Positions 14,364-34,442 of a DNA stretch of 36,928 nucleotides are shown here, piece by piece. This DNA is from a virus (lineage: Duplodnaviria > Heunggongvirae > Uroviricota > Caudoviricetes), in the IMG/VR virus record IMGVR_UViG_2778261565_000018, positions 1 to 36,928 of that record, one strand, 5' to 3'. The translations under genes and the position numbers were made by a program. Positions within the stretch are counted from its first letter, which is position 1, and every line of letters starts with the position of its first letter. The notes beneath the pieces were generated by a model. It was not told the origin of the DNA, did not search any database, and saw only the letters and a program-made list of their open reading frames with translations.

Positions 14364-14887
14364 CTATCAAATCAAATACGCCAGCACACGACAAGGACTG
14401 CTGGCAAACGCCGCTTTGGCTTTTTGATGCACTGGATATTGAGTTTGGATTCTGGCTGGATTCGGCAGCGAGCGACAAAAATGCTCTGTGTGCTCACTGG
14501 CTAACTGAGGCCGACGACGCGCTCAATTCTGAGTGGGTAAGCCACGGTGCAATCTGGAATAACCCACCGTACAGCAATATCAGGCCGTGGGTGGAAAAAG
14601 CCGCTGAGCAGTGCATACAACAGCGACAGACGGTAGTTATGCTTGTGCCAGAGGATATGTCAGTCGGATGGTTCAGCAAGGCTCTGGAGAGTATTGACGA
14701 AGTTCGCATCATCACTGATGGACGGATTAATTTTATCGAACCATCGACAGGGCTGGAGAAGAAGGGAAACAGCAAAGGTTCCATGCTGCTGATTTGGCGA
14801 CCGTTCATCAATCCTCGACGGATGTTTACTACCGTATCCAAAGCGGCATTGATGGCGATCGGGCAGGGCGTCAGGAGGGCAGCATGA
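14360..14887 (+). CDS. Phage-type DNA N6-adenine methyltransferase (Dam-like, orphan), 175 aa
   Basis: NPPY catalytic motif ([10 protein letters not shown]); occupies the lambda ninC/ninD slot; ATGA coupling with ninB. Confidence 0.8.
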
Positions 14888-30943: not shown

Positions 30944-31277
30944 GTCTGAAGTTTTTAACTGGATCCCCCGCGAGGGGATGGAGACGACACGAAAGCCATC
31001 TGTTATTACGGTAAAGTTCGGTGACGGATATGAACAGCGACGGGCTGGTGGTCTGAATGCAGATCTGAAAACGTTTAAACCGGTATTTCGTGTCACGGAT
31101 GAATATTCCCGTGCCGCGCTGGACAGTTTTTTATCCCGTCATGCCGGGGTTCGTGCTTTTTTGTGGCGTCCGCCAAAACACAACAGGACTGTCCGGGTTG
31201 TCTGCAGGGAGTGGAGCATTTCGGATAATGCCATGTATACCGATTTTAACTGTACCTTTGAAGAGGTCACTCACTGA
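30936..31277 (+). CDS. M: Minor tail protein M (start ambiguous: GTG 30936 preferred, ATG 30975 alternative)
   Basis: FGDGYEQR and FLWRPP motifs as in lambda M; GGAGG 8 nt before GTG. Confidence 0.8.
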   Translation: MPESEVFNWIPREGMETTRKPSVITVKFGDGYEQRRAGGLNADLKTFKPVFRVTDEYSRAALDSFLSRHAGVRAFLWRPPKHNRTVRVVCREWSISDNAMYTDFNCTFEEVTH

Positions 31278-31975
31278 TGCAGGATATACAGCAGGAAACA
31301 CTCAATGAGTGCACTAAAACGGAGCAATCCGCGCTGGTCGTGCTCTGGGAAATTGATCTGACAGAGGTCGGCGGAGATCGTTATTTCTTCTGTAATGAGC
31401 AGAACGAAAAAGGTGAACCAGTCACCTGGCAGGGGCGGCAGTATCAGGCCTATCCCATTCAGGGAAGTGGATTTGAGATGAACGGCAAAGGAGCCAGTGC
31501 AAGGCCAACGCTGAAAGTCTCTAATCTGCACGGCATGGTCACCGGGATGGCGGAAGACCTGCAGAGTCTGGTCGGCGGAACGGTGGTCAGGCGTAAGGTT
31601 TACGCCCGTTTTCTGGATGTGGTGAACTTCGTCAACGGAAACAGCGAAGCCGATCCAGAGCAGGAGGTGATCAGCCGCTGGCGCATCGAGCAGTGCAGCG
31701 AACTGAGCGCGGTGAGTGCCTCTTTTGTACTGTCCACGCCGACTGAAACGGATGGCGCTGTTTTTCCGGGACGTATCATGCTGGCCAACACCTGCACCTG
31801 GACCTATCGCGGCGATGAGTGCGGTTATAGCGGTCCGGCGGTCGCGGATGAATATGACCAGCCGACGTCCGATATCACGAAGGATAAATGCAGCAAATGC
31901 CTGAGCGGCTGTAAGTTTCGCAATAACGTCGGCAACTTTGGCGGCTTCCTTTCCATTAACAAACTTTCGCAGTAA
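31277..31975 (+). CDS. L: Minor tail protein L, 232 aa
   Basis: Recognised as lambda L; C-terminal Cys cluster. Confidence 0.9.
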   Translation: MQDIQQETLNECTKTEQSALVVLWEIDLTEVGGDRYFFCNEQNEKGEPVTWQGRQYQAYPIQGSGFEMNGKGASARPTLKVSNLHGMVTGMAEDLQSLVGGTVVRRKVYARFLDVVNFVNGNSEADPEQEVISRWRIEQCSELSAVSASFVLSTPTETDGAVFPGRIMLANTCTWTYRGDECGYSGPAVADEYDQPTSDITKDKCSKCLSGCKFRNNVGNFGGFLSINKLSQ

Positions 31976-31984
31976 TGGATTATG

Positions 31985-32006
31985 CCCACCATCAGGTGGG
32001 TTTTTT
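31985..32006 (+). terminator. Intrinsic terminator after L
   Basis: CCCACC-atca-GGTGGG followed by T6. Confidence 0.6.
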
Positions 32007-32366
32007 GTTGTCATCACCAAGATATTTCTGCTTATATTCCTCTGAAAGAGGAATTGATCTTTCAACCATGCTAATAAGTTTATCTACTTGTTTTTTCTGT
32101 TTTTCTATGATTTCTAAAAGTTGAGGTATAAGTTTTTCATGCTCGCTTTTATCATATTTTCTGTTTATCGCATCTAGTTGTTCTTTAAACTGCTGAACGA
32201 TAGGACCATCCTCCGGCCCAAAATCACGACAAACACGAATCGCCAACTCAAGCAGAGTGACAATCTCAGCATTCATAGAACGATTATTTTGTTTTGATGA
32301 CGCTTCAATTATTTTTTTTAATTCAACAGGAAGCCTAATCCGAAGTTGAGGGTCTTCTCTACTCAT
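31992..32366 (-). CDS. Mnt-like ribbon-helix-helix repressor with C-terminal extension, 124 aa
   Basis: N terminus MSREDPQLRIRLPVELKKIIEASSKQNNRSMNAEIVTLL resembles P22 Mnt RHH; divergent from the arc/ant operon. Confidence 0.65.
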   Translation of the reverse strand: MSREDPQLRIRLPVELKKIIEASSKQNNRSMNAEIVTLLELAIRVCRDFGPEDGPIVQQFKEQLDAINRKYDKSEHEKLIPQLLEIIEKQKKQVDKLISMVERSIPLSEEYKQKYLGDDNKKPT

Positions 32367-32409
32367 ACCATTAGTCCAAACAGGAAAAATTCACAATAAG
32401 TAAATTATG

Positions 32410-32472
32410 CCCCACGGTGGGGTTGACTTCAATGACGCACGGTGTGACAATTTTGATTGCCCCACAGTGAGG
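32410..32472 (+). promoter_or_regulatory. Divergent promoter/operator region: palindrome CCCCACGGTGGGG (32410-32422), TTGACT -35 (32423-32428), second half-palindrome GCCCCACAGTGAGG (32459-32472)
   Basis: Perfect 13-bp palindrome next to a -35 hexamer; related copy 50 bp downstream near the arc-like gene RBS. Confidence 0.55.
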
Positions 32473-32489
32473 CTATTTAAGGAGTGGAG

Positions 32490-32657
32490 ATGGAAAAAGC
32501 AAAAGACATGTATCAACGCAAGGTTCGTTTCCCAGAGGATGTAAGGAAGGCGATTGAAAGAAATGGAGAAAAAGAGTGTCGACAGTTCAACACGGAACTT
32601 ATTTATCAATTGAGAAAAGTGTACGGACTGATTGGAGAGAAGAATGCTAGGACATAA
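32490..32657 (+). CDS. Arc-like ribbon-helix-helix repressor, 55 aa
   Basis: Hand-translated MEKAKDMYQRKVRFPEDVRKAIERNGEKECRQFNTELIYQLRKVYG resembles P22 Arc; AAGGAG RBS 5 nt before ATG. Confidence 0.65.
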   Translation: MEKAKDMYQRKVRFPEDVRKAIERNGEKECRQFNTELIYQLRKVYGLIGEKNART

Positions 32658-32726
32658 AAATAGCGAAGCCCGACAGTGCGCGAACACAAATCGGGCTTCT
32701 ATGTCAGTAACTTCCAAGGAACTAAC
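32655..32726 (-). ncRNA. Predicted Sar-like antisense RNA covering the ant RBS
   Basis: Minus-strand promoter TTGATA-17 bp-TATACT (plus-strand 32733-32761) with -10 overlapping the ant start; minus-strand terminator is the perfect 9-bp hairpin at 32665-32699 plus T-rich tail. Confidence 0.5.
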
Positions 32727-32729
32727 GAA

Positions 32730-33650
32730 ATGAGTATAGCAACAGCGGTATCTACTATCAACGTGCCATTCCACGGCGCAGAGCTTTATGTCGTCAATCA
32801 CAACGGCGAACCGTACACCCCAATGAAACCTATCGTTGAGGGAATGGGTATGGATTGGGCTTCACAGTTTACAAAGTTAAAACAAAGATTTGCTAAAGGT
32901 ATTGTGGAAATCGCAATACCTTCAGTTGGCGGTATGCAGACCATGATTTGCCTTGCTTTGCGTAAACTGAATGGTTGGCTCCAAACCATCAGTCCTAACA
33001 AAGTCCGCCCTGAAATCCGCGAGAAGGTAATCCAGTATCAGGAAGAGTGTGACGATGTGCTCTACGAGTACTGGACTAAAGGCCATGTGATTAACCCGCG
33101 CAAAGCTAAAAAGGCGTTGCCGGGTAAAATCACCACTGAACAGCAGGAAGCCATTAAACAACTCGTCATGAGTCGCGGTCAGTCTCTGCCAAAAGAAAAA
33201 CAGGCTAAGGCGATGATCACCATGTGGTCGTCACTGAAATCCCATTTTGGATGTTCGTACAAAGAAATTAGTGAGGAGCAGTTTACCGAAGCACTGTCAC
33301 TTGCTGCTCGCGTTCCGCTTGAAGGTGAGTTCATTGGCAAACAAGAGAAGAAAACCAACGAGCTTTCCGCAAAAGAAGCAAACAGCCTTGTATGGCTGTG
33401 GGATTATGCTAACCGCTCACAGGCATTATTCCGCGAATTGTATCCAGCGCTAAAGCAAATTCAATCGAACTATTCCGGCAGATGTTACGACTACGGCCAT
33501 GAGTTCTCGTATGTTATTGGAATGGCGAGAGACGTTTTAATCAATCACACACGAGATGTTGATATTAATGAGCCAGATGGACCAACGAATCTTTCCGCAT
33601 GGGTAAGGCTTAAGAGCAAAGAGTTGCCGCCTTCACTGCATCACTACTAA
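32730..33650 (+). CDS. ant: Antirepressor Ant (P22 Ant-like N-terminal domain), 306 aa
   Basis: N-terminal region (LYVVNHNGEPYTPMKPIVEGMGMDW) resembles P22-type antirepressor; AAGGA RBS; downstream of arc-like gene. Confidence 0.7.
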   Translation: MSIATAVSTINVPFHGAELYVVNHNGEPYTPMKPIVEGMGMDWASQFTKLKQRFAKGIVEIAIPSVGGMQTMICLALRKLNGWLQTISPNKVRPEIREKVIQYQEECDDVLYEYWTKGHVINPRKAKKALPGKITTEQQEAIKQLVMSRGQSLPKEKQAKAMITMWSSLKSHFGCSYKEISEEQFTEALSLAARVPLEGEFIGKQEKKTNELSAKEANSLVWLWDYANRSQALFRELYPALKQIQSNYSGRCYDYGHEFSYVIGMARDVLINHTRDVDINEPDGPTNLSAWVRLKSKELPPSLHHY

Positions 33651-33668
33651 CAGATTACCAACGAAATG

Positions 33669-33692
33669 ACCCAGCCTCGGCTGGGTTTTTTA
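33669..33692 (+). terminator. Intrinsic terminator after ant
   Basis: ACCCAGC-ctcg-GCTGGGT followed by T5. Confidence 0.6.
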
Positions 33693-33704
33693 TCAGGAGT
33701 TCTC

Positions 33705-34442
33705 ATGCTCTATAGCAATATATTGGCACACGCCCGGCGGTGTGCGCCTGCGGAGTCGTGCGGCTTCGTGGTGAGAACGCCGGAGGGGGAGCGGTATATC
33801 CCTTGTGTGAATATCTCTGCAGAGCCGGAGGCGTATTTTCGTATTGCACCGGAAGACTGGCTGCGGGCAGAGATGCAGGGGGAGATTGTGGCGCTGGTCC
33901 ACAGCCACCCCGGTGGTCTGCCCTGGCTGAGTGAGGCTGACAGGCGGCTGCAGGTGCAGAGCGATTTGCCTTGGTGGCTGGTCTGCCGGGGTGAGATTCA
34001 TAAATTCCGCTGTGTGCCGCATCTTACCGGGCGGCGCTTTGAGCACGGGGTGACGGACTGTTACACGCTGTTCCGGGATGCTTATCATCTGGCGGGGATT
34101 GAGATGCCGGATTTTCATCGCGGGGATGACTGGTGGCGTCACGGTCAGAATCTCTATCTGGATAATCTGGAGGCCACAGGGCTGTATCAGGTGCCGTTGT
34201 CAGCGGCGCAGCCGGGCGATGTGCTGCTGTGCTGTTTTGGTTCATCGGTGCCGAATCATGCCGCCATTTACTGTGGTGATGGCGAGCTGCTGCACCATAT
34301 TCCTGAACAACTGAGCAAACGAGAGAGGTATACCGACAAATGGCAGCGACGCACACACTCCCTCTGGCGTCACCGGGCATGGCACGCATCTGCCTTTACG
34401 GGGATTTGCAACGATTTGGCCGCCGCATCGACCTTCGTGTGA
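33705..34442 (+). CDS. K: Tail assembly protein K (MPN/JAB plus NlpC/P60-like)
   Basis: Recognised lambda K motifs (HARRCAP..ESCGF, HSHPGG, DCYTLFRDAY); start after AGGAG; the track start at 33666 lies inside the terminator. Confidence 0.85.
   Translation: MLYSNILAHARRCAPAESCGFVVRTPEGERYIPCVNISAEPEAYFRIAPEDWLRAEMQGEIVALVHSHPGGLPWLSEADRRLQVQSDLPWWLVCRGEIHKFRCVPHLTGRRFEHGVTDCYTLFRDAYHLAGIEMPDFHRGDDWWRHGQNLYLDNLEATGLYQVPLSAAQPGDVLLCCFGSSVPNHAAIYCGDGELLHHIPEQLSKRERYTDKWQRRTHSLWRHRAWHASAFTGICNDLAAASTFV

Follow-up and report, generated by a model that had tools for sequence, protein, structure and literature searches.

Three operator-like palindromes of one class within the predicted back-to-back promoters of an immI-type antirepressor module in an E. 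coli prophage

We analysed a 36,928-nucleotide stretch of viral DNA (IMG/VR record IMGVR_UViG_2778261565_000018; this whole stretch is called the window throughout), in which a mnt-like gene and an arc-like gene diverge from an intergenic region that carries three related palindromic sites. Judging from sequence comparison, we consider it likely that these sites are three operators of one class placed within two back-to-back promoters, and that a Mnt-like repressor uses them to control the antirepressor gene, ant. The repressor, probably together with its Arc-like partner, would keep ant silent through the three sites. Our verdict is that the cluster represents what should be genuine operators, belonging to an immI-type module whose architecture is not that of P22. 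The module as a whole, with the mnt-like gene, the arc-like gene, ant and a sar-like antisense unit, is best explained as an immI-type "ant moron" that an E. coli prophage carries between its lambda-type tail genes L and K. What is gained for this uncharacterised allele is a set of exact predicted operator coordinates and a three-site architecture unlike that of textbook P22; the module is a variant of a textbook phage switch and reveals no new kind of system.

The cassette and its two ribbon-helix-helix proteins

The cassette lies between tail gene L (31277-31975; Pfam Phage_tail_L, 2e-99) and tail gene K (33666-34442; JAB and NlpC/P60 domains), and its left edge is formed by a terminator-like hairpin and T-run that follow gene L on the plus strand (31984..32011). 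The mnt-like gene (31992..32366, 124 aa) is read from the minus strand, and the arc-like gene (32490..32657, 55 aa) and the controlled cargo gene, ant (32730..33650), from the plus strand. The 306-aa product of ant is an antirepressor of the P22 type, with Pfam matches to P22_AR_N (8.8e-45) and P22_AR_C (5.9e-30). On the opposite strand, the sar-like antisense unit (32652..32761, minus) would span the ribosome-binding site of ant. Its putative promoter, TTGATA-17-TATACT (32761-32733), lies within the beginning of ant, matches the consensus at 10/12 positions and carries a TG extension; the unit also contains a hairpin (GAAGCCCGA/TCGGGCTTC, 32665-32699, inverted repeat I4), behind which the minus strand has a run of T. 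The whole unit aligns with the annotated sar gene of P22, TATACT and the hairpin arms included. An Rfam scan of 31900-33000 at a permissive E-value returned two chance-level matches and no sar family, so that the sar-like identity is based on how the unit aligns with annotated P22. The mnt-like gene takes its KKPT tail and stop codon from the reverse complement of the terminator-like hairpin at 31984-32011, and the end of mnt in P22 likewise lies within a terminator read in reverse complement.

The region is 99.9% identical to prophages in 2 of 5,426 complete E. coli genomes. In many Shiga-toxin (Stx) phages this L/K slot holds a related module, another allele of the cassette, which has three repeats of a different motif, and the control module occurs with different cargo genes and different flanks. 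The cassette site differs from that of P22, where the cassette is found between gene 16/sieA and the tailspike gene. Among P22-like phages the "ant moron" has been described as an independently regulated mnt/arc/ant cassette in the late operon (Villafane et al. 2008, PMC2629481), with a content that is highly variable between otherwise syntenic phages (PMC2629481); that account deals with P22-like podoviruses, and the operators of non-P22 alleles are not defined in it (PMC2629481). The module described here, in contrast, resides in the tail module of a lambda-like siphovirus, in a slot that Stx phages also use for another allele. Antirepressor modules decide the induction of the resident prophage and act also in trans on other prophages of the same cell.

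The initial annotation read the mnt-like and arc-like products as ribbon-helix-helix (RHH) proteins, and both assignments hold. Against Pfam Arc the Mnt-like protein gives 3e-7 (30.6 bits, cut-off 20.4), and among solved structures P22 Mnt itself (1mnt, E 1.5e-3) comes closest, with residues 3-43 aligned to 2-42. It consists of an N-terminal RHH domain (MSREDPQLRIRLP...RSMNAEI) and a helical C-terminal part. The N-terminal domain is unchanged in 47 distinct homologues; the sequence of the C-terminal part does not resemble P22 Mnt, in which this part is a tetramerisation domain, and relatives of the protein show at least six unrelated C-terminal classes. A single-sequence AF2 model of low confidence (pLDDT 55) contains only helices past residue 14 and places three of them at 55-69, 73-104 and 109-115. 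The residues of the β-strand that face the DNA are, presumably, Gln, Arg and Arg.

The Arc-like protein (MEKAKDMYQRKVRFP...) is a small RHH protein. As a single sequence it scores just under the curated cut-off of Pfam Arc (1.1e-3, 19.2 bits, cut-off 20.4) and matches phrog_228, "Arc-like repressor", at 1.3e-5. A single-sequence search of solved structures returned designed proteins only, and Arc was reached with a family profile of 17 sequences, which matches 1baz/1arq with residues 1-41 aligned to 1-41 at E-values from 2e-4 to 9e-4. From the alignment to Arc we take the DNA-facing residues to be Q9, K11 and R13. The resulting strand, Q-K-R, is nearly the same as the Q-R-R of the Mnt-like protein.

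Three palindromic sites within two predicted promoters

A perfect palindrome next to a −35 hexamer had been noted between the two genes, and it is indeed present: CCCCACGGTGGGG occupies 32410-32422, its 6-bp arms read as exact reverse complements round one central G, and TTGACT directly adjoins it at 32423-32428. A related "half-palindrome" had been placed further downstream. Its distance of 50 bp, from the centre of CCCCACGGTGGGG at 32416 to its own at 32466, and its position upstream of the arc-like ribosome-binding site (RBS) are correct, but this second copy (CCCCACAGTGAGG; read as GCCCCACAGTGAGG, 32459-32472) is a whole palindrome, imperfect by a single mismatch between its arms (CCCCAC / GTGAGG), and most relatives have a near-perfect palindrome of 15-17 bp in its place. 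The end of GCCCCACAGTGAGG lies 6 nt upstream of the AAGGAG RBS (32479-32484), and the ATG of the arc-like gene is at 32490. Both of the copies that the initial annotation counted do exist, but a third was overlooked, so that the sites number three: TGACGCACGGTGTGACA, at 32433-32449, stands exactly halfway between the other two (spacing 25 and 25 bp). A repeat finder reports the middle copy as TGACGCACGGTGTGA at 32433-32447, in a family (D1) whose copy starts are exactly 25 bp apart.

The three copies can be written as three 17-bp sites, O1, O2 and O3, with centres 25 bp apart and the consensus TGnCnCAC-n-GTGnGnCA. O1 (32408-32424; TGCCCCAC-G-GTGGGGTT), which contains the 13-bp palindrome, has two mismatches to this consensus, O2 (32433-32449; TGACGCAC-G-GTGTGACA) has none, and O3 (32458-32474; TGCCCCAC-A-GTGAGGCT) has one. 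O2 is asymmetric and departs from O1 and O3 at positions ±4 and ±6.

A lone 13-bp palindrome is nothing unusual in the window, in which we found 14 palindromes of the 6+1+6 type against 8.7 ± 2.9 in shuffled sequences. The pattern CCCCACNGTGGGG with up to two mismatches has 2 sites in the window, with about 1 expected. The 17-bp consensus pattern TGNCNCACNGTGNGNCA has four matches in the window, three of them inside 67 bp, and three or more consensus sites inside 70 bp were observed in 0/300 shuffles, where the largest cluster was of two sites and was reached three times. The non-random part is the cluster of sites and not the single palindrome.

To relate the sites to transcription, we scanned both strands for promoters, which are predicted here as consensus matches. 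The predicted arc/ant promoter, Pant (32423..32451, plus), consists of TTGACT (32423-32428), a 17-bp spacer and a TG-extended GACAAT (32446-32451). The predicted mnt promoter, Pmnt (32404..32432, minus), consists of TTGAAG (32432-32427), a 17-bp spacer and CATAAT (32409-32404), and this TTGAAG-17-CATAAT match (32432-32404) is the sole promoter-like match on the minus strand of the intergenic interval. The two predicted promoters, both of the sigma-70 type, stand back to back, and their −35 hexamers share 2 bp. Overlapping divergent promoters had been proposed for this region, and divergent promoter-like sequences do hold the palindromes, but the overlap is confined to the −35 hexamers and is not the full overlap of P22. 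Pant is near-invariant across 67 distinct intergenic sequences from relatives, with the layout of the annotated P22 Pant, and the features of Pmnt recur in relatives as well, with CATAAT or CATACT as the −10 hexamer and TTGnnG as the −35.

Each site has a distinct place with respect to these predicted promoters. O1 fills the spacer of Pmnt, in agreement with the proposal that the first palindrome falls within the minus-strand promoter of the mnt-like gene, and it also abuts and overlaps the −35 hexamer of Pant. O2, which lies immediately upstream of the Pmnt −35, fills the spacer of Pant, and the TG-extended −10 region coincides with the right half of the site, GTGTGACA. O3 starts 6 nt past the −10 hexamer of Pant and so covers the predicted start point of this promoter. 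Read against the hexamers, the free positions (n) of the consensus hold promoter bases; the "CA" of CATAAT comes from the TG of O1, and on its right O1 ends with TT in place of CA, this TT being the beginning of TTGACT.

Conservation of the sites and the protein that would read them

To assess how the sites are kept among relatives, we scanned viral contigs with the Arc-like protein and obtained 80 loci at 79-100% identity, which together with the window give 81 sequences. All three sites are present in 81/81, with O1 and O2 always 25 bp apart and O2 and O3 separated by 24-27 bp, and they are also kept in the genome and metagenome loci of this allele that we examined. O2 is identical in 76/81 sequences. 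At the centre of O1, 57 of the 81 sequences have G and 24 have C, and T is found there in Proteus and Mixta; taking all sites together, G, C, A and T all occur at the centre (A at O3 of the window). In Xenorhabdus (L095) and Mixta (L101) a sequence of the O2 type is found in place of O3.

The 67 distinct intergenic sequences are almost invariant from the −10 hexamer of Pmnt through O2, and they are nearly random in the 8-10 bp between O2 and O3 and in the bases past O3. O1 and O2 are embedded in promoter elements, and their conservation is therefore inseparable from that of the promoters, so that O3 provides the only clean footprint. It forms an island of conservation between variable flanks, in which G−7, C−5, C−3, A−2 and C−1 and their mirror positions are kept and positions −6, −4 and the centre vary. 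This pattern is, as far as conservation can tell, the signature of a two-fold symmetric protein that reads alternate positions. Two-fold symmetry with an unread central base and with half-site centres spaced by roughly one turn of the helix, as looked for in an RHH operator read by the β-strands of a dimer of dimers, is accordingly what the 17-bp consensus displays, with G, C, A or T at its centre.

The N-terminal domain of the Mnt-like protein is invariant in the viral-contig set, and covariation between protein and operator is thus unavailable within that set. We turned to a wider set: an alignment of the Mnt-like proteins, run against genome and metagenome contigs, added 25 + 80 more diverse loci (the metagenome part being the best 80 of at least 269 relatives). 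Residue 8, in the numbering of P22 Mnt with the initiator Met left out, is the middle DNA-facing residue of the strand. Where residue 8 is Arg (12 distinct N-termini), position −5 of the half-site is C in 183/184 cases, and where it is Lys (10 distinct N-termini), position −5 is A in 66/68, both counts ignoring kinship among the loci. The rule is valid at O1, O2 and O3 alike. It can be seen in two close relatives, L164, with the Mnt-like N-terminus MSREYPQMRLRMS and the half-sites TGCCTCAC / TGCCCCAC / AGTCTCAC, and L173, with MSRDYPQMKLRMP and TGTACCAC / TAAACCAC / GGAACCAC: Mnt residue 8 and the operator base both switch between the two, and the Arc-like strand is Q-K-R in both. A switch against a constant Arc-like strand indicates that the operators follow the Mnt-like and not the Arc-like protein. 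In Serratia and Xenorhabdus, moreover, loci in which the gene at the arc position is not an RHH gene keep all three sites. The most probable reader of O1, O2 and O3 is, from these observations, the Mnt-like repressor. The proposal of the initial annotation that the palindromes are operators for RHH proteins is, for its Mnt-like part, borne out at the sequence level by their conservation in the 67 sequences and by their covariation with the Mnt-like strand residue. RHH repressors such as Arc, MetJ, CopG and ParG insert a two-stranded β-sheet into the major groove, with specificity residing in the strand residues, and at least two dimers bind adjacent half-sites (PMC3413123). The covariation of Arg/Lys with C/A fits this rule of strand specificity, at least as a sequence pattern.

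What the Arc-like protein does at these sites is a separate question. The simplest reading, which we put forward tentatively, is that it shares the operators of the Mnt-like protein, in an arrangement closer to that of CI and Cro than to that of P22. In several lineages (L147, L148, L152) the short protein is evidently a truncated paralogue of its Mnt-like neighbour, with the same N-terminal arm and strand, and we found no second conserved motif in the intergenic region across the 67 distinct sequences.

A different reading, in our estimation a rather unlikely one, is that the Mnt-like protein is the sole user of the sites and that the Arc-like protein has its target elsewhere, for example another DNA site, an RNA or a protein, and not at 32404-32474. 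In its favour, changes in the operators go with the strand of the Mnt-like protein and not with that of the Arc-like one, and a group of Serratia and Xenorhabdus loci (group B) keeps three sites, at 25/26-bp spacing, with a non-RHH gene of 57 aa in the arc position. As a clean test of the sites where Arc is missing, group B holds only in part: in L105 and L110 a 55-aa RHH paralogue with the same strand lies elsewhere in the locus, tail-to-tail with mnt, and in L103 no RHH paralogue was found within the 1.5-kb flanks. The near identity of the Q-K-R and Q-R-R strands, the truncated paralogues and the lack of another conserved motif in the intergenic region all argue against a Mnt-like protein acting alone here, as does the annotation of the P22 record, according to which Arc autoregulates at this promoter.

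We also considered a division of labour in the manner of P22, with the Mnt-like protein on O1 and O3 only and the Arc-like protein on O2 in the Pant spacer, and we regard it as improbable. O2 does occupy the same promoter spacer as the annotated arc operator of P22, and it is asymmetric, differs from O1 and O3 at ±4 and ±6 and is almost invariant (76/81). Three Rhizobiales loci (L104, L145, L149) have O1 and O3 only, and one of them, Rhizobium L104, which combines a P22 Arc-type strand with the lack of a middle site, at first backed the assignment of O2 to Arc. This assignment was rejected because L144, whose Arc-like strand is P-N-R, keeps Mnt-type sites at both the O2 and O3 positions, and because the three Rhizobiales loci share no alternative motif in the middle. 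In addition, O2 fits the common consensus without a mismatch, its deviations fall on positions that vary freely in O3 and its right side spells the extended −10, it obeys the covariation with Mnt residue 8 like the other sites, and O2-type sequences stand in for O3 in L095 and L101.

That the palindromes are not protein sites at all, but arise by chance or act at the RNA level through O1:O3 pairing in read-through late transcripts or as a terminator, is barely credible: although palindromes of this length are common in the window (14 against 8.7 expected) and O1 and O3 are 86% mutually complementary and are paired in the minimum-energy RNA fold, two similar palindromes pair automatically, the fold of 32400-32492 is no better than that of shuffled sequences (z = −1.43; 19/200 shuffles equal or better), for which the RNA-structure reading was dropped, and O1 lies upstream of the predicted Pant start. 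A terminator is excluded by geometry, a 6-bp stem with a 1-nt loop being unable to form and no T-run following it, and chance is excluded by the clustering, conservation and covariation of the sites. The symmetric conservation, the free central base, the third copy, the covariation with a protein residue and the match in position to the P22 mnt operator also argue against any such reading.

Comparison with P22 and lambda, and a proposed mechanism

The module shares with P22 immI its gene order and orientation, a homologous N-terminal RHH domain of Mnt, an Arc-like protein, a P22_AR antirepressor and a sar-like unit. The annotated Pant of P22 consists of TTGACA (14793-14798), 17 bp and TATATT (14816-14821); the arc operator, 21 bp in length, lies in its spacer (14798-14818), and the mnt operator, AGGTCCACGGTGGACCT, is a perfect 8+1+8 palindrome (AGGTCCAC-G-GTGGACCT, 14828-14844). 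Both the P22 mnt operator and O3 are 17 bp long and start 6 nt past the −10 hexamer of Pant (predicted in the window), and by its place in the sequence O3 is the positional counterpart of Omnt, as O2 is of Oarc. The mnt operator of P22 has a 9-bp core, CCACGGTGG, in common with O1 of the window and with O3 as found in most relatives; with O3 of the window, which has a central A and one arm mismatch, it shares only the 7-bp core CAC-n-GTG.

Against this common ground, the control region differs from that of P22 in several respects. Arc and Mnt of P22 each have an operator of their own, the 21-bp Oarc and the 17-bp Omnt, which are unrelated to each other, whereas three sites of a single class are found here. 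No separate arc operator of the other class (21 bp, with TAGA-type half-sites) was found in the Pant spacer, where O2 is located, and no TAGA-type motif is conserved among the 67 distinct intergenic sequences. In P22, Pmnt (14798-14826, minus) lies on top of Pant (14793-14821), each −10 being near the −35 of the other; here the predicted Pmnt is displaced by 25 bp, stands back to back with Pant and has an operator of its own, O1. A Pmnt superimposed on Pant as in P22 was looked for in the window, and the bases at the equivalent positions show no likeness to the hexamers. The outer bases of the half-site are TGCC here and AGGT in P22, the strand residues are Q,R,R here and H,N,R in P22 Mnt, and the two proteins have unrelated C-terminal domains. 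Arrays of sites in other RHH systems mostly consist of tandem short boxes, whereas the sites here are discrete 17-bp palindromes 24-27 bp apart.

A likeness to the lambda OR region exists as a functional analogy only. In both there are three related, two-fold symmetric sites between or within divergent promoters, of which one serves a maintenance repressor and the other a small repressor on the lytic side, and in both two proteins may plausibly share the sites. The lambda proteins are of the helix-turn-helix kind and those of the module ribbon-helix-helix, OR controls a lytic cascade and the module an antirepressor, and the sharing of sites by two proteins is, for the module, what we infer. 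A search of full-text literature with the operator sequences and the P22 Omnt core returned no match. The kind of system is well known, and the allele and its back-to-back layout with three sites of a single class appear to be undescribed in the literature searched.

The mechanism that these sequences suggest is as follows. At each half-site the β-sheet of the Mnt-like RHH repressor, with Gln, Arg and Arg, would enter the major groove, and the repressor could occupy all three operators. Occupation of O2 and O3 in a lysogen would keep arc and ant off, and occupation of O1 would limit the synthesis of the repressor itself. The leftward mnt promoter would be weak and the rightward arc/ant promoter strong. 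When Pant fires, the Arc-like protein, whose DNA-facing Q-K-R is almost the same as the strand of the Mnt-like protein, would most likely bind the same sites and shut the promoter again, and the sar-like antisense RNA would add translational control of ant.

An extended form of this proposal, which must be considered possible but doubtful, is a switch made entirely of RHH proteins, with two repressors and three operators, in which the long Mnt-like protein, a maintenance repressor with an exchangeable C-terminal domain, and the short, paralogue-like Arc-like protein would compete, with nearly identical DNA-facing residues, for O1-O2-O3 between the back-to-back promoters as CI and Cro do at lambda OR. 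If this were true, a large family that extends from the Enterobacterales to Acinetobacter and the Burkholderiales would have P22 as its exception, the two operators of P22 being unrelated, and there would be a simple, readable recognition rule, in which residue 8 recognises G at +5 if it is Arg and T at +5 if it is Lys. The Arg/Lys to C/A rule could be used to predict heteroimmune modules or to guide the design of orthogonal RHH repressor/operator pairs.

Two further observations concern the arrangement of the sites. O1 is the best palindrome of the three and yet lies in the promoter of the repressor's own gene, which is awkward for a model in which Pant would be filled first and autoregulation would follow later. 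The spacing of 25 bp corresponds to about 2.4 helical turns, which would place neighbouring tetramers off the same face of the DNA, and the variable O2-O3 spacing of 24-27 bp speaks against rigid cooperativity.

Domain composition and portability of the repressor genes

Among the relatives of the mnt-like gene (window 31992-32366, minus strand; loci L004-L191), the N-terminal ribbon-helix-helix (RHH) domain is invariant, while the proteins as a whole range from 86 to 151 aa and end in at least six unrelated C-terminal domains. The most frequent C-terminal class, found in proteins of about 143-151 aa, corresponds to phrog_1388, whose function is unknown. Because a single invariant RHH head carries unrelated C-terminal domains, these sequences suggest that the DNA-binding head has been kept and that different C-terminal domains have been shuffled onto it. 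Oligomerisation, sensing, and service as a target for other factors are candidate roles for the C-terminal domain.

Tail gene L is followed by a terminator, and the 3' end of the mnt-like gene falls inside this element, read on the opposite strand (window 31984-32011 and L084 14500-14530). The T-run and stem of the terminator thereby supply the codons for the final residues, KKPT, together with the stop codon. The same KKPT ending is found in many relatives whose C-terminal domains are unrelated; P22 Mnt has a comparable terminator-derived end, KKTT. Since this terminator-encoded end is common to proteins with unrelated C-terminal domains, it suggests that recombination has joined segments at two places, the 5' part of the gene that codes for the RHH domain and the terminator.

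The mnt-operator-arc control module as a unit is portable (L004-L083 and L087-L111). Its neighbours are lambda-type L and K genes in approximately 15 loci, whereas a few loci have P22-type genes on its flanks, and in many loci the downstream cargo is not a P22-type Ant.

Operators and DNA-facing residues

In Stx phages, the slot between L and K holds another allele of the cassette (L002 1355-1475, from Stx2a_WGPS8, corresponding to window 32367-32489). Unlike in the window, the RHH strands of both proteins read K-N-R, and the control region contains three repeats of a different motif, of the TCATGGTGCCA type, with 47 bp between the outer copies. The differences in both the strands and the repeat motif are consistent with control regions that are allele-specific, that is, heteroimmune.

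In three Rhizobiales-like loci (L104, L145 and L149) the strand residues are P-R-R, and the number of sites is reduced to two, of the form TGGTCCAC-n-GTGG.., which lie 48-49 bp apart. Their half-site is identical to that of the P22 mnt operator, GGTCCAC, yet the strand of P22 Mnt is H-N-R. Given that the same half-site occurs under both strands, the strand-to-base code is not one-to-one at the outer half-site positions.

Variant loci, damaged genes and the sar-like unit

In phage TL-2011b (NC_019445; L001 1560-1610, also L080), one extra nucleotide following codon 9 shifts the frame of the mnt-like gene, giving MSREDPQLRDQTSR and then a stop, and the predicted operator O1 has diverged as well, to CCTCACCGTGTGC; the gene is intact in the sister contigs L081-L083. 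In L043 it is cut to 20 aa. The broken genes of TL-2011b and L043 may represent maintenance repressors that have decayed, or else errors in sequencing.

The window also contains a sar-like antisense unit (32652-32761, minus strand). It starts from a predicted promoter, runs across the ant start codon on the opposite strand, and includes a hairpin with a T-run behind it. The unit had no match in Rfam, even at a permissive threshold, and can be aligned to the annotated P22 sar gene.

Phage CUS-3 (CP000711) is described as lacking arc in the epsilon34 paper (PMC2629481); an unannotated arc-like ORF of 46 aa, MKVKTLRMPEKLEK..., lies between its second mnt gene and ant (L085 1610-1750). The intergenic region of CUS-3 contains a direct repeat, ACTAT(C/G)(A/T)ATGCGTACC, with one copy in the promoter spacer and another after the -10.

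Five loci from Serratia and Xenorhabdus (L103, L105, L106, L109 and L110) share the three-site layout of the window, and the arc position is occupied by a 57-aa acidic non-RHH ORF (phrog_4587, of unknown function) that precedes an antirepressor-like gene. Two of them, L105 and L110, encode a further RHH paralogue of 55 aa, MSTRADPQLRARIP..., arranged tail-to-tail with mnt.
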